From positions 186,001-250,000 of the forward strand of contig QPGO01000037.1 in the NCBI GenBank assembly GCA_008632985.1: a stretch of 64,000 nucleotides of DNA, written 5' to 3'. This DNA comes from Psammoneis japonica. Its lineage: Eukaryota. The notes beneath the pieces are model-generated. The model saw only the letters and a list, made by a program, of their open reading frames with translations, searched no databases and was not told the origin of the DNA. Positions within the stretch are counted from its first letter, which is position 1; each line of letters begins with the position of its first letter. The position numbers and the translations under genes are program-made. This document shows positions 22,549-49,166 of this stretch, one piece after another.

Positions 22549-23149
22549 GGTGATGCGCGAAAACTTCTGAAAAGCTGCGAGCTGCGAAAAGATCCAAAGA
22601 TCCAATGATTATTTTTATACGTGACTTAGAACTCGGTAATCCATTTCTGCAGCGGGTTTGCTGTCGTAAGCAAGCTCTTTCGTTTTCTCTCACTACTGTA
22701 GACTACGAAGTAAATTGAAAATTTGCCATTTGATCCAGACTATCTCTACCGGTAGAGCGATAGTTAGCACATTGCAGAACATGAAGTAACAGTTACATAT
22801 TAAAAAGCTGTTTCTGAAAGCCTGAACACCTGGGTGGCCCCAAAACAAGTTGAAATGCCTGGGTCGAGCGAAGTGCTGCTGTCCCGAGTTCTGCATGGCA
22901 AGACGCCTCCATTAATTGGACGTGCGTCTGTCCGATGGGTGTTGTGGTCGTTGCTGGTTGCCAGCTCTGCAACAAACTGATCAGTTAGAAGAGAACAACA
23001 GGGAACAATTTTCAACTGCTCACGACTTAAAATCGTACAAGTACGCCGTAGTTGACTCGTGGTTCAAAAGATCAAGTCGTGCCGCGTCCGACAAATGATG
23101 AAAGCATCGGTCCCGACAGAGCCATTATTTGTCCAGAGCAAATCTCAAC

Positions 23150-24496
23150 ATGGGCAACTCGGTCTCCTTCTCTAATTTAACCCAGTGGGCTTCATGGACG
23201 CGCCCAAACCCAAAGAAGCTGTTGATGCTTGGTTTGGATGCCGCAGGGAAAACAACCCTATTATATAGTCTCAAGTTGGGCGAGCCGGTACCCACAATCC
23301 CCACGATCGGATTCAACGTGGAAGAATTTAAAACCCAATCCAACATCTTCGTTGCGTGGGATGTGGGCGGTCGGAGTAGGATTCGAACCGTTCAACGTCA
23401 CTATTATAAAGATACGGATGGCATCGTCTTCGTCGTGGACTCGAACGACCGGGAGCGCATGGATCAAGCGAGAGATGAACTACACCAACTTTTCGAGGAG
23501 GAAGAATTGCGCGGAGTTCCATTTTTGATCATGTGCAACAAGCAAGATTTGCCCAACGCCATGTCGCCCAAAGAGATTCTTCTACAGTTGCTGGTTCCCA
23601 ATGATCAAGATGACTTGAAACGACCCTTGCGTGCTATGGGATGCGTTGCAAAAACAGGTCAAGGACTAGAAGATGGTCTGATCTGGTTTTCTGAAGTCGT
23701 CAAGATTGTACAGGATGACGTCTCAGTTGAGGCCAATCCTCAAGGCAAAGCTGAGTCCAACAAACCCACGTCCTCGTCGGTACAACATCTTGTCGAGCAG
23801 CTCGGTTACGACCCTTCTGACGCCAAGCGGAATCCTGTCCTCAAGAGTTTCCGTCCTATTCAGCTGGGGACCGAATGTCCTTTTGCAAAGGCCGCCAAAC
23901 TCTGGGGCGTCACGTCCGAGAAAATGGCAGTCAATGCTGAGGTCTTATCGGCTTTTGTGCAGCAGAGCCAGAAAGGTGACGCACTGGATGGATTTTGTGT
24001 CCAATTGCCTCCTGAGGCATCGTTAGTTTCTCACCCGAAACAATTTGGAACGTACGTGTACGACGCTCTTCGGCTCTTGTCTGATTTGGATCCATCAGGA
24101 GAACGCGTCATGCAAGTCAACTATATTGGTGCTCGAGGATGGCGCTTTCGATTCGCCAAGGAGGACTTTTTCGTCACGACATTTGCGCCGTGTTATCCCT
24201 CCACCTCAAGTCGATATGCATTTGGTACTGGCAAGGCATTTGTACTGCTACAACCAGAGCGTTCTTTCCATCGTCATAAGCTTCCTGATGATACACCCTT
24301 GACTATGGACCCACCACAAACGATCCGTGACAAGACAAGATTGGCTTTTCGTGAGGCCGGCCGTAGCTACAGCATTCCTGCTACGACCAAATACCCACCC
24401 GCAGAGCACATTGTCAAGCCCATTGTGGATGACGGTGTCGTTATCATTCGTTGGTGGGAAAGGGAGAGCAACAGCGAAACCAAGGAAGCAGGATAA
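23150..24496 (+). CDS. Arf-family small GTPase fused to a YqcI/YcgG-like C-terminal domain
   Basis: MGNSVS myristoylation motif, [21 protein letters not shown](R), NKQD. C-terminal half [41 protein letters not shown]. Confidence 0.85.
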
Positions 24497-39881: not shown

Positions 39882-42800
39882 ATGGACCACGAGATTGCGC
39901 AGGTTAGTGTTAGTGATGGAGTGCTGAATGACACGGTAGAATCGCAAGCAAAAGAAAGAATAATAGCAGATATTAAAGACTATGATGCGTTCGAAGAAGA
40001 AGCCGAAGATGGATTTTCCTCAGAAGATACCGCTCAGAGTAGCACTTGGACCTTTTCAGACAACCTTATTTTACCAGATCCACAGCCAGAAGAAAACACA
40101 ATAGCAAATATCAACCCCTACGCCGCTCAGCAACAGGATGATACTTCCGATGCAAGTGTGCGAGGAGATTTTCCTGAGAACCGAATTCTCCCAATTGCCG
40201 ATGAGTTTGGTCAGCCTTCTCACTACCCTGGCGAGCATGCATCCTATAGATCACAGAAGCAAGCCGAAGAAGTGAATGACTTGGACGCCCCTAGATCAAT
40301 CATTACTGCAGGGTTTGAATCGTTCAAGTACATCTACTCATTAGCGCTACTCGTATTCTCAGTTGTCGTTGTCATGGCGTCAACCTTCTCAAAACAGACA
40401 ACCGCGACACAGGATGCGAACATTCACCCCGCTCTCGCGTTTTTCATCTTTTGGTTCTTGATTTTCTGGCTTGGAATAATGGAAGGAGGACAAGGATGTA
40501 TTGTCGGTCTCAAGTCAGTTGATAAGAGTCTCTATTCTGAGAGTCATCCAAAAACGTTGAAATGCACGAGACTCGCTCACAAGGGAGACAACACCAGACG
40601 GTTCATTGTTGGGCGTCAGTTTATGGTGGTCCTGGTCGTTTTCATTTCCAACTTTATGTCCACCCCCATAGAAGGATCAAGTGTGCTGGGCATGTCAGAG
40701 GGTGCCACAGCCTTTTTCCTTGCATCCGGGCTTGCTCTCACCTTGACGACGATTATGATTGGTCAGCTTTCTGTCCAAATCAATGCCGCAAATTGTATGC
40801 TGGATTTCATCAACAACTACTTCATGGACTTTGCGACGTTTGTGTCGCTTGCAATTGAGTTCTCCGGTGTGATGCATTCGGTCTATCTAGTCCAAACCTT
40901 CTTTTGCTCGATCACTGGCGAGCGCATCGAATCAAATGAAGCTCCAAGAAATGTGCTTCAAAATATTTTCTTCTGGGCCAGGGTATTGCTTTCTACCGCA
41001 CTGCTAGGCTTTGCCTTTGCAGTCACAATAACGGCTCTTTTTGAAGGAAAGACTAGAATGTGGGAAGGCCTCCCGCCTGCCGCATCAGTGGTTATCTTCT
41101 TCTTTTTAATGGGCTTTGTTGGCATCATGGAGGGCATGCAGATTGCACTCTTTGCTTTTACGGACATTCCTACGGAGGCTCTTGAAAAGTCGAGTGTTGC
41201 CAAGAAGAATTGCGACCTAGTATTCAAGGGACAGAATTTGCAAGCAGTTTTGATTGGACGTCAAATCTGCGTTACCTCTTGCATGTTTGTCATTGCTCGA
41301 ATCACTACGCTCGATGTTGACGTTGATACTGAGGAGGATACAATCTTTGGTGTCTCGAATGGCCTACAAGAATTCTTCAACACCGGTTTGCTTGGAGCAG
41401 TCATTACAACGATTGTTGGGTCTTTGGCTTGGCGCGTAGTTGCTACGTCATTCCCGTTGGCTTTCTTGTCCAACCCTCTCACCTTTCTCAGTATCCGGCT
41501 ATGTTTGCTTTTCGAGGCCTCTGGACTATGTTCAGCTTCCTGGGTGCTCGCCCGGCTTACCAAGTTGCTCGTCGGCTTTCAACCTGATGAAGTTTACCTA
41601 AGTGGTGCCGAGCCGCACACCACCCAGCCTGTTACTCGTCGGGACAAGGACATCGACCGCACCTTGGCTGTTATTCGGTATCTGTATTCATTGTTACTGC
41701 TGGTGTTTTCTGTCGTTGTTGTCGTCGCGGCTATATTCTCCGAAAAAACCGTGGGAACCAAGGAGAAAGGCATTCATCCTGTTGCCGCTTTCTTTATCTT
41801 CTGGTTGCTGATGTTTTGGCTTGCAATGATGGAAGGAGGACAAGGTGCACTTGTTGGTCTTCAATCCATCGACAAGGAAGACTATAAAGGTACTCACCCA
41901 CGAACTCTCAGGTGTGCGACCCTTGCTCACAAGGGAGACAATATGGGACGATTTATTGTTGGAAGACAATTTCTTGTCGTCTTGGTGCTCTTCTTTTCGA
42001 ACTTGATGTCTTCCGCTTCGGAAGGGACCACCGTTCTTGGACTACCAGACGCCCTCAACGAAATCTTTTTTGCCAGTGGGATTGCGCTTTTCTTGATTAC
42101 AATCATGATTGGTCAGCTCACCGCACAAATCAACGCCGCATACTGCATGCTTGATTTCATTAACAACTACCTGATGTTGTTTACTACCTATGTTTCCTTG
42201 GGTATTGAATTCTCTGGCTTGTTGCACTCGGTGTACTTGGTGAAATCAATATCATCCAAGGTCACCGGAACCCGTGTTCCTACTAATGAGCCACCAAAGA
42301 GCGTTGCTCAGAGCATATTTTTCTGTGGGCGCATTATCGCCTCCATTCTTATTCTTGGGCTTTCCTTGGCCGTCACCCTCACCGCACTCTATCAAGGCAA
42401 GACAACGGCTTGGGACGGAGTCCCGAAATCCGTTTCTGTCCTTATATTCTTTGTCTTGCTATGCTTTGTTGGCGTGATGGAAGGTATGCAGATCGCGCTC
42501 TTTGCCGTTGTGAACATGGAAGAGGAGAAACAGGAACGCCACTCCATCGCGCATGCCATCTGCAAGTTGGTATTCAGTGGTCAGAACCTTCAAGCTTTTC
42601 TGATAGGTCGTCAGATCTGCGTTACAATTTGCATCTTTGTGATTGCTCGCATAACAACACTTGACGTCGATCTTGCCACCGGGGATACAATCTATGGTGT
42701 AAGCAATGGCATGCAAAGATTTTTCAATACTGGTATTCTTGGCGCAATTATCACAACGATAATTGGTTCGCTGACATGGCGAATAGCCGCTTCGACATTT

Positions 42801-44375
42801 CCCCTAACGTTCTTGTCGAATCCTCTTATCTACCTCATTCTTCGAGTATGCCATGTGGTTGAAGCCTCCGGGTTGTGCTCCGCGTCCTGGCTTCTCGCAC
42901 GCTGGAACAAGCTCTTCGTGAACTATCAACCCGATGAGGTATATCTGGAGGGAGCCGAACCTCATGGAAAGGAACCCGTTACAAAGCGCGACAAGGACAT
43001 TGATGTAACCGTGTCTGCCATCAAATACGGCTGCTCACTTGGTTTACTCATATTTTGTGTTTCGATTGTGATGACCGCAATATTCAGCTCGCAGACAAAC
43101 GTCGCCTTGAACACCCATCCAGCAGTGGCATTCTTCGCTTTCTGGTTCTTGCTGATCTGGCTAGGTATGATGGAAGGCGGCCAAGGGTGCCTTGTAGGTC
43201 TTCAGCTTGTTGAAAAGACACTTTACGTGGAGAGTCATCCTCGGACGTACAAATGTACTACACTTGCGCACAGAGGCAAAAACATGGAACGTTTTATTGT
43301 TGGACGGCAATTCTTAGTCGTCCTTGTTGTGTTCGTCACCAACCTGTGTGGTGCGGCTGTTGAAGATGCTAGTGTACTGGGTCTTTCAGACTCAGTGAAC
43401 CAGATCTTTTTGGCTTCTGGCGTTGCCATAATCCTGACAACGGTTATGGTTGGTCAGCTTGCGGCACAAATCAATGCGGCAAATTGCATGCTGGACTTCA
43501 TCAACAACTATTTCATGCTATTTACAATTTACGTCTCGCTTGCGATTGAATTCTCCGGGCTGCTGCACTCCGTGTACCTTGTCCAAATCTTCTTCGCTAG
43601 GATTGCGAACAAACCAAACGAATCCAACAAGCCGCCGCGCACTAAATGTCAGAATGTCTTCTTCTGTACCAGAACACTACTTTCACTGGTCATTCTCGGC
43701 TTTGCATTTGCCGTGACGCTGAATGCGGTTTTCAAAGGGCTGACAACCATGTGGGATGGTATTCCATCGGCCGTGTCAATTGTATTATTCGTCATTCTCA
43801 TGTGCGCCGCCGGTGTGATGGAGGGCATGCAGATTGCACTCTTTACGGTCGTCAATATGCCGGAAGAAGACATCTCAAAGTCCCCGATTGCCAACAAAAA
43901 CTGCAAACTAGCTTTTACGGGTCGAAACCTTCAGGCGTTCTTAATTGGGCGCCAGATCTGCGTGACTGTTTGCATGTTTGTTGTCGCACGGATTTCAACC
44001 CCCAACGTTGATGTTGACGCAGGAGAAGAAACTATGTTCGGCGTTCCACGAGGCCTCCAGGATTTCTTCAACACTGGCTTACTTGCAGCTGTTATAACGA
44101 CCATTGTAGCTTCTTTGGCCTGGCGTGTAATCGCCTCATCCTTCCCTCTGGCGTTCCTGTCAAATCCACTAATCTATGTCACCATTCGCATATGCTTGGT
44201 AGTTGAGGCGTCGGGTCTCTGTTCCGCTTCATGGCTGCTTGCCTCCGTTCATAAGCAGGTCGCTGGTTTTGATTTTGATGAAGTGTACGTCGGTAACTCA
44301 GAAGGTGTGGAGGAAGGAGAAGCTAAGCAGTCGGAAAGAGATGTAGAGATGGGGTTTGACGTTGTGTACAAATGA
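39882..44375 (+). CDS. SIT: Silicon transporter with three complete SIT units in one ORF (1497 aa)
   Basis: Three repeats, each with MEGGQG, VGRQF, GQL..CMLDFINN, MEGMQIA and IGRQ. Units at ~40315-41600, ~41660-42950 and ~43010-44290. Possible upstream intron 39788-39869. Confidence 0.97.
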   Translation: MDHEIAQVSVSDGVLNDTVESQAKERIIADIKDYDAFEEEAEDGFSSEDTAQSSTWTFSDNLILPDPQPEENTIANINPYAAQQQDDTSDASVRGDFPENRILPIADEFGQPSHYPGEHASYRSQKQAEEVNDLDAPRSIITAGFESFKYIYSLALLVFSVVVVMASTFSKQTTATQDANIHPALAFFIFWFLIFWLGIMEGGQGCIVGLKSVDKSLYSESHPKTLKCTRLAHKGDNTRRFIVGRQFMVVLVVFISNFMSTPIEGSSVLGMSEGATAFFLASGLALTLTTIMIGQLSVQINAANCMLDFINNYFMDFATFVSLAIEFSGVMHSVYLVQTFFCSITGERIESNEAPRNVLQNIFFWARVLLSTALLGFAFAVTITALFEGKTRMWEGLPPAASVVIFFFLMGFVGIMEGMQIALFAFTDIPTEALEKSSVAKKNCDLVFKGQNLQAVLIGRQICVTSCMFVIARITTLDVDVDTEEDTIFGVSNGLQEFFNTGLLGAVITTIVGSLAWRVVATSFPLAFLSNPLTFLSIRLCLLFEASGLCSASWVLARLTKLLVGFQPDEVYLSGAEPHTTQPVTRRDKDIDRTLAVIRYLYSLLLLVFSVVVVVAAIFSEKTVGTKEKGIHPVAAFFIFWLLMFWLAMMEGGQGALVGLQSIDKEDYKGTHPRTLRCATLAHKGDNMGRFIVGRQFLVVLVLFFSNLMSSASEGTTVLGLPDALNEIFFASGIALFLITIMIGQLTAQINAAYCMLDFINNYLMLFTTYVSLGIEFSGLLHSVYLVKSISSKVTGTRVPTNEPPKSVAQSIFFCGRIIASILILGLSLAVTLTALYQGKTTAWDGVPKSVSVLIFFVLLCFVGVMEGMQIALFAVVNMEEEKQERHSIAHAICKLVFSGQNLQAFLIGRQICVTICIFVIARITTLDVDLATGDTIYGVSNGMQRFFNTGILGAIITTIIGSLTWRIAASTFPLTFLSNPLIYLILRVCHVVEASGLCSASWLLARWNKLFVNYQPDEVYLEGAEPHGKEPVTKRDKDIDVTVSAIKYGCSLGLLIFCVSIVMTAIFSSQTNVALNTHPAVAFFAFWFLLIWLGMMEGGQGCLVGLQLVEKTLYVESHPRTYKCTTLAHRGKNMERFIVGRQFLVVLVVFVTNLCGAAVEDASVLGLSDSVNQIFLASGVAIILTTVMVGQLAAQINAANCMLDFINNYFMLFTIYVSLAIEFSGLLHSVYLVQIFFARIANKPNESNKPPRTKCQNVFFCTRTLLSLVILGFAFAVTLNAVFKGLTTMWDGIPSAVSIVLFVILMCAAGVMEGMQIALFTVVNMPEEDISKSPIANKNCKLAFTGRNLQAFLIGRQICVTVCMFVVARISTPNVDVDAGEETMFGVPRGLQDFFNTGLLAAVITTIVASLAWRVIASSFPLAFLSNPLIYVTIRICLVVEASGLCSASWLLASVHKQVAGFDFDEVYVGNSEGVEEGEAKQSERDVEMGFDVVYK

Positions 44376-44490: not shown

Positions 44491-47400
44491 TCACTGTGCA
44501 TCTGACGTTCCCTCGGCACTTCCTTTCTCCATTAGCATGTGCTCCGCAGAGAGCGCCAGATCTTCACTGAGACTTTCCTCCATCCATCCTTCGTGATCAA
44601 GTAGACACCGATGAAGCCGCCACTAAAGGCATCGCGGAAAGTAGCATGACGAATAGCCTTTATTCCAAGTGCAATGGCTTCCTCTTCAGTCATGTCGAAC
44701 CGTCTCTCTGTGTCGAGAATGCCGAGTGCAAACGTACTACCAGAGCCAACAGAAAACAGATCACCGCCGATTCGGACACCAGTGTTGTCCACGTAAAATA
44801 TGCTGGGCCCAGAGTCTTGATCGAATCCCATGATCATCGTTCCGACGGACAAATCAAGAGCTCGATTCTCATATAAGGCGTTTGATAGAATGCGGGACGC
44901 ACGCGCCACTGGCATGCGGCGGCCCTCAGTCAGCTCGTGAAGCATTGCCTCTGCTTTCAGTCTTCGGATCCAAAAGCTACAATCTGCAGCACCTCCTGCC
45001 ATAGTCCCAAGCATGTGGCTGCGAAAGAGGGATGAAGCAAAAGCATCAGTATAATATCATAACTGCAATTGTCACCTTGCTATCGACTGCGGTACGTACT
45101 CATTGATTGGCAAGACCTTCTGCGTTGTTTTCGAGCCCACAAAATTTCCAATACTAGCTCTTGAATCAACCGCCGCAATAATCCCACCTTGGAATATAAA
45201 GGAAAGTGTTGTGGTACCATGGTCAAACTCAAGTGGCGGAGGGGAGACGCTGCCTAGCATGTCGCCTTCACCCCGAAAATCAACATTGATTTCATCATGA
45301 CTTCCTCCTCTGAGATCGTCAAGGGTACTAGGAACGGAAGACGGTCGCGTGGGAATTGTCCGAGGAGAAAAGATCCCATTTGTTCGGTCCACAAAGAATG
45401 CCATTGCAGCTGCGGCGCCCAGTATGAGCCGACCTCGAACATTATTTGAAATCGTACGGCCTGCGCAAGTGTGAGCGCTGCGATTCAGAGTGGTATAATT
45501 ACGCCTCGTACCGGAAGCTGGGCGAACTTGTTTCACAATGTCTCTCACAACTGACGGCCCGCCAGCTTGAGGAACTGCATTTTGTACGCCCTTGAAGGGC
45601 GTAGAAGCCACAACTGGATCTGATCTGCTGCCACCCGTCGGCGACAAAGAACTGGCAACTACAGCTGTAACCGGCGGAGGAACAATGGTTGACGGACCGA
45701 CGCCAACGGATATCTTTCTTATGTCAATACGAGGGGCCGAGGATTCAAAACTATTCCCTATCTGCGAACCGACATAGTTCGATCCATTCATGGGAGCACC
45801 TGCTGATTCGTCTGACGATGCCACAGCCGGAGAAGACGCATTCACAGCTGCCCTGCTATTCGCAGCTGCACCCAAGGGAGATGTAATCTGACCTGCATTT
45901 TTCTGTGCGTTGGAGAAGAAAGGGTCCTTTTCTAGGCGAGCAGGCACTCCATCAAATCGAATATCACGGGCTGAAGGTGTTAGTAGAGCTGCGTCGATTG
46001 GCACCTCAACCTCAAACTTTGCAAAATGTTTGAAAGATGATCCGTCAGGAAGCGTTTTGACACCCTTCAAGGGTCTGACTGAAACTGTTGTTCTACTTGA
46101 CGGAAACTTTAAACCGCCAGTTCCACACAATCCCTCACCGGCTGTAGCCTTTTTCAGAATAGTCTTTCTTGTTTGATCCCAGTTATCCTTTTCCTCTTCT
46201 GTCCAATTTCGGGAAGGACTTGCACCACGTACTGTAACCTCGCCGTCTGAAACAGCAGTGACGAAGCCTTCGATAAAGTATGGGTACCCTATGAATACCG
46301 TGGTGCCAATAAATTCTGGTCCGAGGACAGGAACAGGTGGTAGAAAGCCCTTACTATCAGCCACCTCCAGAATAGCTGTTAGGTATCGGCTTCTCAAACC
46401 AAACACGTTGATGCCTAGTCGTCGACGCGACAGGCTTTGAATGGGAGCGTCTTGAAGCGTCGGGAAACCGGCTTGTGGAGAGACAGCGTCCTTGGCCGGT
46501 AACTTGGGACGAAACCGTTCATTTTCACTCTGTTGCTTCACATCCCATTCCGTCGAATCCAGCGTCTGCATCTTTGCTGTACAAGCCTCAATCATTTTAA
46601 AGTACTTTCGACCTTCTGTGCCGACTCCCATCACATTTTCTTCGACGTAATGGGGATCGTGTGCAAACACAAACGGTTTCCCGATAACGTTCCTTTGCTG
46701 TTCTTCCTCCGACAACATGTCGTTGGTTACAGACGTACGCGATGCATCCAAGAGACGCCGGGAATCAATAAATGGTAAAAGAACAACGGCCTCCCAAGGC
46801 CATCGCTTTCCATTCATATCGACCGTAAACGATCTGGGGTAGAACTCTGCAATCGGTGACGACTTTTCTGTCATAAGCCATCGATACGGCTTTGGCACAA
46901 GATGAGCGTTTGAGGGCGGAAGACATCCCATGAGTTGCTCGAATGGTCGCAGGGGTTCACCTAATTCATCAAAGGAAATCTCATTCAACATTTCGTCAAC
47001 GTCAACTAAATCGCTTAGCATCGGACCTGCGCGAAGGAGGATTTTGGCAGTCACGAGTCAAATACCGACACGAGTTTCCGAACATGGTTAGCGTCTGCCG
47101 TCCTTAAACCGCCACGAGAAACGACAAAACGAACAAACCAATCTCACCGTAATGATAAGGGTAATACCAGTCCCACGACACACAGCCTTCATAGTAGTAC
47201 TTAAGATTCCAAACGAGTCCTTCAATATAAGCTTTCCGAAGCGCCAGATGCTTTTCAGCATCAAAAGGAGTGAATTGGAACTTTCCAAAGTAGTACCGTC
47301 CCTTCAGATCATCTTTATTCACAGAGTCGGAAATCAAGCTCACGGTACTATCAGTTGCGTCATTTGATGGAGCGGAATACTCAAGAAGCTTTGAAAAGAG

Positions 47401-49166
47401 GCCCTTCTCCGGCTCTTCCTGAGCTTCGGGTATAAATGTGTCTGGCGCAAACTCATCCGACAAGACTGGAGCAAAACCATCTTTTCCGGATGCCTGCTCC
47501 TGCACAACAGACTCCAACATTTCAAGATACTCCTCACGGTCCGCCTGCGCTTTGGACTCCAACACAAAGTCACTCGGAATCGTCGACTCTCGATCTAGAG
47601 AATTCAAAAAACAAGCGTCAGGCACAAGCCCGAGGAAGAGACAAGCAAAGCCACCAAGCGTCGTCTATGCATATACGTACTGGCTTTAAGATCTTGTTTT
47701 CTCCATCGTTCGTTATCACGACTGGCGGTCATCTTCTTGTTGTCGTAATACACGGTTTCGTGCGCACCAAGTGTTGTCATGAACTCTTGAAGGCGTTTAC
47801 CCGACACAATTGATCCTGAATCCGTCAAGTAGGGGAGTGGCCCACCCTTTTTCTTTCGCCACCTGGTTCGGAGTTGTTTGTATGTATAAAACAACAAATC
47901 AAAAGCTTCATCGGCAATATCGAGTGCAGGCATGTGCGGCAAAAAGTCGTTCCCTACGAAAAAGGTCATAAACACAAAGTCATCAATGGTTCGTTCCAAG
48001 TCCCACTTGTTTTGGGGAACAACATTTCGAGTCTCGAATTCGAATGCCAAGTAGTCTCTTAAAATACCCATGTGCAGGAATTCAAAATTGTGGTTGTGAA
48101 TGTACCGCGACAAGGCCACGCCGGTTGCCGATGAAAACACATCGCCATCGCTTTCCAGCGTGGCGGCTGCGGACAAGCGTTTTTGTCGTCGTAAATCAAA
48201 CACGACTTCTTCTCGCAACAAGACCAAATTGTGCTCATGTGTGGCCAAACCCAGCATGACCAAATCACCGTCTTGTCCCATGATGCAATGGCGAAGGTTG
48301 GGATGGTACCGTTTTCCAACATGTTGTTCCTTGCGAATAAAGTCCATAATTTTGTGTTCTCCCTCTCCGGGAACGTTGGGACCGGAAAACACAATGGTCA
48401 AGTGTTGCCACTTTGGGTCGTTGGTGAGCTTGTATTTTATGAAATGTTCCAAATGATTGATGCAATTGGTAAAAAAGGGTGTGCCCGGCGTAATTTCATT
48501 GGAACTAAAGGGTGCGCTGCCGTCCGCGTACGCAGAGTCGGACGATATTGGTTCTTCTGTATCTTGCGTTTCAAACGTTCCAGTAAATCGACCAGGTTCC
48601 ACTTCCTCCAAAACACTGTCGGTTTCCTTGGAGTATGAATAGGATATATCATCTTCTCGGATCCTGTCATCACCGTCTTTTAATTTCTTTTCTCGTTCTT
48701 TTGCCAAATGCGCTTCATAGACGGTCCTCTCAATTTCTCCTTCCTTTCCACTACGGTATCGTCTAGAACGTTGCTGATTTAATTTAGCACGAGGTGCGAC
48801 TCCGTCAATCGCCATGTACACCAACTCGGTAGGCTGTGCCATGTCACGAATGATGCGATCGAGATAATAACAAACATTGTTGAAAATTTCGTCATGCGTC
48901 ACGCCCTCTGCATCGCTTCCGTTTTCGTCGTCCTCGTTGTTATTATGACTGCATCCGTGAATAATACCATTCATATCAATGTAGAGACGATCAATGGGTG
49001 GTGCCTTGCTGACGGTTGCCATGGGATCGGGTGGCTCGACGGGATCGGGAGGTGCATGGCCGTCAAAGTGCTCTTGGTAGGTTTCCACGCTTGGAACAAA
49101 CGCCACGCGTTGATTTATTTTGGGATATCGTTCCGATAACCAACGGAAAAACTTTGGGACACCCAT
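44491..49166 (-). CDS. XRN-family 5'-3' exoribonuclease fused in frame to a proteasome beta5-type subunit (~1460 aa)
   Basis: XRN: MGVPKFFRWLSERYP, LYIDMNGIIH, AIDGVAPRAK, GEGEHKI, GQDGDL, GNDFLP, WYYPYHYGP, PFEQLM, WEAVVLLPFID. beta5: HG/TTTL..DSRAS..K..GTMAGGAADC..VGSGS..RDAFSGG. Introns 47680-47595, 47147-47027 and 45099-45019 all keep the phase. Likely 1-bp error near 44570 (track ORF stops at 44532; corrected stop 44491). Confidence 0.85.

Follow-up and report, generated by a model that had tools for sequence, protein, structure and literature searches.

A conserved diatom gene joins an XRN exoribonuclease to a proteasome β5 paralogue, with a candidate internal signal peptide between them

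Why would one gene encode a 5'-3' exoribonuclease followed, in the same frame, by an active-site subunit of the proteasome, and how could two such enzymes be parted? The question is raised by a gene in a 64,000-nucleotide (nt) stretch of Psammoneis japonica DNA (assembly GCA_008632985.1, contig QPGO01000037.1, positions 186,001 to 250,000), the whole of which we call the window. We found that the fusion is a real gene, conserved in the diatoms sampled, and no artefact. Our best reading is that this one gene encodes a polyprotein of two enzymes which would work in different places. At about even chances, we favour the view that the fused β5, here called β5', is the missing β5 of the periplastidal 20S proteasome and that it is parted from a cytosolic XRN nuclease at an internal signal peptide, not by autolysis alone. 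The targeting, the cleavage site and the compartment of β5' are proposed from sequence.

The fusion gene runs on the minus strand from 49166 to 44532 in four exons (49166-47681, 47594-47148, 47026-45100 and 45018-44532), all junctions being in phase, and its spliced coding sequence of 4347 nt specifies 1448 amino acids (aa). The introns are 86, 121 and 81 nt long, with donors GTACGT, GTGAGA and GTACGT and acceptors that all end in AG. The protein has a normal XRN start, MGVPKFFRW, and no N-terminal signal peptide. It comprises XRN_N (5e-82), XRN_M in three pieces (8e-25, 1.5e-20 and 2.8e-37) and Xrn1 D1 (XRN1_D1, 1e-17), followed by an unconserved linker of about 150 aa and a complete proteasome β5 domain (Proteasome, 2e-35, with a separate match for its N-terminal piece). 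The halves meet within a single open reading frame (ORF) at 45072..47057 (661 aa, minus strand), which is free of stops from the XRN helical region (PFEQLM, WEAVVLLPFID) to LEFDHG/TTTL and, once past the helical domain, takes in D1 and a low-complexity stretch before it reaches PPLEFDHG/TTTLSF. A 200-codon linker would be open by chance with a probability of about (61/64)^200, or about 7e-5. The features, in window coordinates, are the following.

47681..49166, minus strand: exon 1, start codon ATG at 49166-49164; XRN_N and the start of XRN_M, aa 1-495 plus one base (PF03159, 5e-82)
47595..47680, minus strand: intron 1, 86 nt, GTACGT...CTCTAG
47148..47594, minus strand: exon 2, middle of XRN_M (PF17846, 1.5e-20)
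47027..47147, minus strand: intron 2, 121 nt, GTGAGA...GCGCAG
45100..47026, minus strand: exon 3, end of XRN_M, D1, linker, signal-like segment, pro-region and the first 39 aa of mature β5'
45954..46481, minus strand: Xrn1 D1 domain, aa 827-1002 (PF18332, 1.1e-17)
45438..45899, minus strand: unconserved linker, Ser-rich and basic, aa 1021-1174, at most 0.19 identity to orthologues per 20-aa bin
45390..45437, minus strand: signal-peptide-like segment RGR-LILGAAAAMAFFV, aa 1175-1190, with a basic n-region and a hydrophobic h-region
45216..45389, minus strand: pro-region, aa 1191-1248, its first part hydroxylated and basic, then an acidic part ending in PPLEFDHG
45303-45311, minus strand: LRGG in the pro-region, before the acidic part
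45213..45215, minus strand: Thr1 codon of β5', aa 1249, preceded by Gly-1
45019..45099, minus strand: intron 3, 81 nt, GTACGT...TTCGCAG, within β5' between ...PIN(D) and HMLGTMAGG
44532..45018, minus strand: exon 4, remainder of β5' in the frame of the window, stop codon TAA at 44534-44532 (PF00227, 2.2e-35)
44491..44574, minus strand: shifted frame with the conserved C-terminus SEDLALS...DAQ and its stop, from comparison with orthologues

Is the fusion found elsewhere? A homologue search with exon 3 among long proteins gave 147 matches at E ≤ 1e-3, and we considered the best 120 of these. PF00227 and XRN domains occur together in 87 of the 120 listed homologues, 85 of which also carry PF03159; among the first 93 listed, five without a Pfam label still reach the Thr1 motif and break off about 30-45 aa later. 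Wherever a listed homologue has a named source, this is a diatom, and the genera span Corethron to Nitzschia (Corethron, Skeletonema, Thalassiosira, Conticribra, Detonula, Pseudo-nitzschia, Nitzschia, Cylindrotheca, Fistulifera, Seminavis, Amphora and Mayamaea). MMETSP transcriptomes contributed seven of the homologues as ORFs, so that a single mRNA spans both halves. The linker frame is open in 91/91 database relatives. The Phaeodactylum tricornutum fusion is Phatr3_EG02257, a 'Merged' model described as 'Proteasome subunit; XRN N-terminus' with measurable expression, in which the RNA-seq-guided Phatr3 annotation joined two Phatr2 models into one.

An earlier, sequence-only reading of this DNA had described one gene in one frame with three canonical in-phase introns, and had proposed looking for the same fusion in other diatoms. 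The gene model bears out the first point and the fused homologues answer the second. That reading also knew of no characterised example. This agrees with our full-text literature searches, in which no paper describing an XRN-β5 fusion was found, and the supplements of PMC6779911 hold no proteasome or XRN entries; fused models are already present in public annotations under automatic names. Four fused orthologues (P0027, P0030, P0038 and P0061) have an extra SAP domain (PF02037), with PF13297 also in P0027 and P0038. The homologue P0093, 1549 aa long and encoded on a 1-Mb contig, has a divergent XRN (30% identity) and shows the hydrophobic segment and PPLLFAHG/TTTLAF before its model breaks off; it may be the deepest fused lineage.

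A wrong merger of neighbouring genes, or a pseudogene, would be in keeping with the reading frame of the window gene shifting by 1 nt close to its 3' end. The recurrence of the architecture in most of the listed homologues (87 of 120), transcript-derived ORFs included, speaks against such an artefact, as do the RNA-seq-guided merger of both Phatr2 models and the invariance of both active sites described below. We regard this explanation as extremely improbable and already effectively refuted.

The frameshift itself touches the end of β5'. The window frame ends in ...DGWRKVSVKIWRSLRSTC with its stop at 44534-44532, and 44491 is the stop of the frame shifted by one base, which reads ...SEDLALSAEHMLMEKGSAEGTSDAQ (SEDLALSAEHML...DAQ). 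Orthologues have DGWRKVFSEDLA where the window frame breaks, which points to the absence of one T from GTC-TTC-AGT in the window, near 44568-44573. Relative to all orthologues, this apparent 1-nt deletion puts 12 unrelated residues in place of the conserved C-terminal FSEDLA... helix of β5', a helix that is present in the AlphaFold2 (AF2) model of an orthologue. The gene end at 44491 that had been given earlier thus belongs to the frame shifted by one base and not to the window frame, which stops at 44532. Either the assembly carries an indel here or the allele is damaged by a genuine frameshift.

Are the two active sites intact, and is β5' the β5 of the host? We found that the window β5' has Thr1, Asp17, Lys33, Met45, Gly47, GSG, RDAFSGG and FWIRRLKAEA. 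Residue conservation was followed in an alignment of 53 full-length fusion members, in which 13 XRN residues and 11 β5 residues are invariant (53/53). On the β5' side these are Gly-1, Thr1, Asp17, Arg19, Lys33, Met45, Gly47, Ala49, Ser129, Asp166 and Ser169. The best PDB matches of the β5' domain are all β5 or β5i chains, from 3.4e-48, and the mature domain is 55-60% identical to yeast, plant and human β5. The C-terminal ~200 aa would be an active β5-type proteasome subunit.

Phaeodactylum tricornutum has a stand-alone gene of canonical type, Phatr3_J20007, under KEGG K02737 ('20S proteasome subunit beta 5') (PhaeoNet table, PMC7596299 supplement file 2), and for this reason we gave up the notion that diatoms have no β5 other than the fused one. 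In the Rastogi table, expression is 251 and 1887 for J20007 and 29 and 98 for EG02257, about 9-19 times higher for J20007. Since P. tricornutum has this separate and far more expressed canonical β5, the fused β5 is a paralogue. The two genes also lie in different PhaeoNet modules, J20007 in darkgrey with other canonical 20S genes and EG02257 in steelblue, a module in which, by the available part of the PhaeoNet paper, nucleotide metabolism and the biogenesis of ribosomes and tRNA are enriched (PMC7596299).

An exhaustive HMMER scan over 1.84 billion representatives gave 1849 matches, 137 of them at E ≤ 1e-30, and brought in further relatives that stand alone. In the β5 tree the fused forms, short forms nested among them and a stand-alone sister group (266-377 aa) make up one clade on a long stem with a Shimodaira-Hasegawa-like (SH-like) support of 0.995, and the fused forms cluster apart from canonical β5s, ochrophyte P0357 included. 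By these comparisons, β5' is a distinct paralogue and not the host's constitutive β5. A stand-alone 'group A' that was sister to the fused clade in a first tree moved among the canonical β5s with wider sampling. A homologue search with the canonical β5 P0233 gave matches centred on Amoebozoa and was uninformative on diatoms. With canonical β5 (PSMB5, yeast Pre2, J20007) β5' shares the N-terminal nucleophile (Ntn) hydrolase fold, PF00227 and residues Gly-1, Thr1, Asp17, Lys33, Met45, Ala49, Ser129, Asp166 and Ser169; it differs in its separate clade, the signal-like segment upstream, the XRN fusion and a lower mRNA level. Vertebrates have β5i/LMP7 and β5t, alternative catalytic β5 paralogues that enter the same cytosolic 20S. 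Like β5', these are second catalytic β5s beside a constitutive one, whereas they have neither a signal peptide nor a fusion to another enzyme.

On the XRN side, the invariant residues are the acidic metal-binding residues D64, D121, E268, E270, D299, D301 and D407, the 5'-phosphate pocket (K128, Q131, R135 and R136) and H271/K272. D1 is present (PF18332, 1e-17) and D2_D3 and SH3_12 are absent, unlike in the other diatom XRN1 paralogue; diatoms keep a separate, longer Xrn1 with D2_D3 and SH3-like domains (P0094-P0120), and Phatr3 lists five XRN_N genes. Judged by its domains, the XRN half is also a paralogue. Its N-domain scores equally well against Rat1/Xrn2 and Xrn1. The XRN half resembles Xrn1/Pacman in XRN_N, XRN_M, D1, the metal ligands and the 5'-phosphate pocket, and differs from it in having no D2-D3, no SH3-like domains and no long C-terminal tail. 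The N-terminal ~1020 aa would be an active Xrn1-type 5'-3' exoribonuclease paralogue with catalytic, helical and D1 regions and no D2-D4.

Several claims of the sequence-only reading stand after this comparison, namely the Thr1 codon at 45215-45213 with the β5 catalytic motifs, the intact acidic metal-binding motifs of XRN, and the suspicion that the β5 is a paralogue, for which there are now a separate canonical J20007 and a clade of its own. Its suggestion that the gene supplies the core enzymes of RNA and protein degradation fails, with an XRN half that has no D2-D4, a full XRN1 kept and the main β5 encoded elsewhere.

The region between the halves is of a different kind. Linker residues 1021-1160 have at most 16% identity to orthologues per 20-aa bin, and the distance from the end of D1 to Thr1 varies from 142 to 393 aa (median 202.5; 66 members in which the end of D1 could be located). 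In the AF2 model of the orthologue P0001 (73-row alignment), the predicted local distance difference test (pLDDT) score is below 50 at residues 714-948, and a confident β-subunit fold follows Thr1. Judged by this conservation pattern, selection acts on both halves but not on the linker. Of the linkers, 0/66 contain a 2A-like NPGP skipping site, and the linker and pro-region hold no further Pfam domain.

What, then, could part the two enzymes? We surveyed the region upstream of Thr1 in the window protein and P0001-P0093, leaving out two without a Thr1 motif (n=92). In 92/92, a hydrophobic run without charged residues, 11-28 aa long (median 16), precedes Thr1. The 10 aa before the run have a net charge of at least +2, again in 92/92 and typically as RGR, and small residues stand behind it. 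The median distance from the segment to Thr1 is 73.5 aa. The most hydrophobic 15-mer upstream of Thr1 reaches a hydropathy of at least 1.5 in 56/60 clade members, versus 1/37 other β5s with at least 30 aa upstream. Furthermore, 5/6 stand-alone sister proteins (P0381, P0399, P0431, P0439 and P0417) start with a classical N-terminal signal peptide. Given these signal peptides and a hydrophobic 15-mer that is nearly confined to the clade, the internal segment of the fusion corresponds in position to the signal peptide with which an ancestral stand-alone β5' would have begun. The residue after the cut predicted by a crude -3/-1 rule is not F, W, Y or L in 76/87, and the 25 aa behind this heuristic site contain 20% S/T, with K/R (9.6%) above D/E (6.2%). 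This conserved signal-like segment had been missed in the earlier reading, and it offers a possible cleavage route other than β5 autolysis. As a separate matter, the [LI]RGG-type motif at 45303-45311 of the window resembles the ubiquitin C-terminus. We rejected [LI]RGG as a universal cleavage motif, with [RH]GG found 20-60 aa before Thr1 in only 47/92.

The segment could also mark the start of a second product. An internal promoter or internal initiation would then yield a short precursor of signal peptide and β5' beside a long form that serves mainly as XRN. Short forms that begin with Met directly before the segment are in line with this (P0194, an MMETSP ORF called 'complete', P0215, P0361, P0370, P0374 and P0381-like proteins), and the window has a Met at aa 1186, though inside the hydrophobic run. 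A Met stands within 40 aa upstream of the run in 54/92, where chance predicts 58%, and 17/92 lack one throughout the 100 aa that precede Thr1. With upstream Met at chance level and these 17 proteins having none near Thr1, an internal start codon is not conserved, and we dropped the idea of a conserved internal Met as unsupported. In addition, with an internal start the open frame over the linker would need no maintenance, and many of the short forms, encoded on contigs of about 1-2 kb, may be truncated calls. We consider an internal start very unlikely. Stand-alone β5' proteins consisting of Met, the hydrophobic segment and β5' are nested in the diatom fused clade (P0194, P0215, P0361, P0370, P0374 and P0359); they could be due to secondary gene fission, internal transcripts or truncated gene calls.

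Autolysis, as in the sequence-only reading but now with a paralogous subunit, could do the parting if β5' enters the host cytosolic/nuclear 20S as an alternative β5. Cleavage at Gly-1/Thr1 during assembly would then free XRN, linker and propeptide together, and the hydrophobic segment would serve the propeptide as an anchor in assembly. The invariance of Gly-1, Thr1 and the full catalytic set is consistent with this, and the 55-60% identity to yeast, plant and human β5 is as expected of a subunit that still fits the 20S ring. The median of 73.5 aa between segment and Thr1 is also about the length of a canonical propeptide, whose N-terminus is anchored in the half-particle. The available part of a study of human proteasome assembly reports that in the half-proteasome β5 propeptide residues 2-8 are buried at α6/α7/POMP, 60 Å from β5, and that in the assembly intermediates the β5 propeptide is cleaved after fusion of the halves (10.1101/2024.01.27.577538). 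Since the N-terminus of the human propeptide is, by that account, buried inside the particle, an N-terminal extension of 1248 aa would be topologically awkward; a folded extension of ~1170 aa would have to exit the closing chamber. The N-terminal signal peptides of the stand-alone relatives would make no sense for a host 20S subunit, and a separate, far more expressed host β5 exists. We think entry into the host 20S unlikely.

Alternatively, the fusion could stay in one piece, the segment being an uncleaved anchor or a buried helix and β5' acting in cis, for instance as an oligomerisation or protease module of the nuclease. This would agree with a frame held open through a non-conserved linker in 91/91 relatives, and the co-expression with ribosome and tRNA biogenesis genes fits an RNA-processing role of the whole protein. 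However, Gly-1 and Thr1 are invariant. Ntn-hydrolase activity requires a free Thr1 amino group and we know of no β subunit that is active outside the ring, both of which count against an uncut protein, and an uncleaved type II anchor would set the halves on opposite sides of a membrane. An uncleaved fusion is, we think, distinctly unlikely.

Where might a second, signal-bearing β5 be needed? The available part of Moog et al. 2011 predicts versions of α2, two α7, β2, β3, β6 and β7 in the periplastidal compartment (PPC) of P. tricornutum, of which α7-1/2, β2, β6 and β7 were placed there by green fluorescent protein (GFP) fusions; as far as that part goes, neither a 19S cap nor β5 was found (PMC3101018). 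The screen as described there kept only Phatr2 models with an N-terminal signal peptide, and a PPC signal is defined by a transit-like part whose first residue is neither aromatic nor Leu (PMC3101018). In a review, to the extent of its available text, the diatom periplastid 20S proteasomes are without a cap and are termed degenerate (PMC5756292). For P. tricornutum, the available rows of the PhaeoNet table contain a further group of 20S-like genes that are more divergent and expressed at lower levels. A signal peptide is predicted for several of them, and the group includes β2-like J14571, β3-like J12731, β6-like J14449, β4-like J11795 and α-type EG00657. Since β4 is absent from the Moog et al. 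2011 list as far as available, the periplastid 20S set may exceed the published one. Signal peptides are predicted for Phatr3_J11795 (β4-like) and EG00657 (α-type 20S).

The published PPC subunits (sα7-1/2, sβ2, sβ6 and sβ7) resemble β5' in being divergent second 20S copies with signal peptides, and a particle that, on the available account, has no 19S cap and no listed β5 leaves a slot that β5' could fill. They differ in that their signals are N-terminal and bipartite and the subunits were localised by GFP, whereas the signal-like segment of β5' is internal, lies behind ~1170 aa and is known from sequence alone.

If β5' is the missing periplastidal β5, the following course can be proposed. 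The XRN half would be translated and folded in the cytosol first. The emerging basic and hydrophobic segment would then direct the ribosome to the (chloroplast) endoplasmic reticulum (ER) and insert with its N-side cytosolic, so that the β5' part would be translocated across the membrane and signal peptidase could cleave behind the hydrophobic core. β5' with its transit-like pro-region would pass into the PPC, fill the β5 position and mature by the usual Gly-1/Thr1 autolysis. XRN would remain on the cytosolic side, held there by the hydrophobic segment or set free. The more extended form of this proposal, somewhat short of even and offered tentatively, is that signal peptidase splits a cellular polyprotein, that an Xrn1-like nuclease is tail-anchored on the chloroplast-ER, that a β5 passenger is imported into the endosymbiont cytoplasm, and that this arrangement has been kept in the diatoms sampled, from Corethron to Nitzschia.

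Several points weigh against periplastidal import of β5' after cleavage at an internal signal peptide. The signal-peptide call is made from hydropathy, charge and a home-made -3/-1 rule, which are heuristics and not a validated predictor, and the hydrophobic run of the window itself is short, at 13 aa with a hydropathy of 1.83. In PhaeoNet no plastid or ER signal is assigned to EG02257, a negative that is limited because the predictors used work from the N-terminus and are blind to a signal further inside. The expression of EG02257 follows that of ribosome and tRNA biogenesis genes and of no proteasome set. The β5 tree is a FastTree tree of 101 mature β5 domains of ~200 aa. The canonical β5 and the PPC subunits were seen for P. 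tricornutum only, a diatom whose fusion protein differs from that of the window in its N-terminal sequence, so that a canonical β5 in the window species is presumed from it. In the structural regions of flaviviruses and hepaciviruses, host signal peptidase cuts the polyprotein at internal signal peptides. The likeness to the diatom gene lies in a cytosolic N-terminal product and a translocated C-terminal product, split at an internal signal sequence; the difference is that the diatom case is a cellular gene and the cleavage hypothetical. To our knowledge, a cleaved internal signal peptide behind a folded domain of ~1170 aa has its precedents in viral polyproteins and none in cellular genes.

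Two further genes of the window may be mentioned. The convergent neighbour at 39882-44372 (plus strand) is a single ORF of 1497 aa with three full silicon-transporter (SIT) domains (PF03842, three stretches, 1637 bits), and some 120-160 bp separate the stop of this triplicated SIT from the fusion gene's 3' end. At 23102-24493 (plus strand), one ORF holds an Arf-family GTPase (2.7e-54) together with a YqcI/YcgG-family domain (4e-8), an unusual pairing.

On a conservative reading, the diatoms sampled have an obligate fusion of a nuclease and a protease that stands in databases under automatic names. If the proposed import of β5' is true, the new element would be a 20S subunit of the periplastid type that comes in an unprecedented fusion, and the 20S-only proteasome of the diatom PPC, described in the literature as minimal or degenerate and left there with no β5, would gain a bona fide active-site subunit; this bears on whether that compartment in fact degrades proteins. 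The gene would be a cellular case of a virus-type trick in which two unrelated enzymes are separated at an internal signal peptide, and screens for N-terminal signals would overlook such cargo. Finally, an Xrn1-type nuclease would sit at the membrane surface where plastid-bound proteins are translated.

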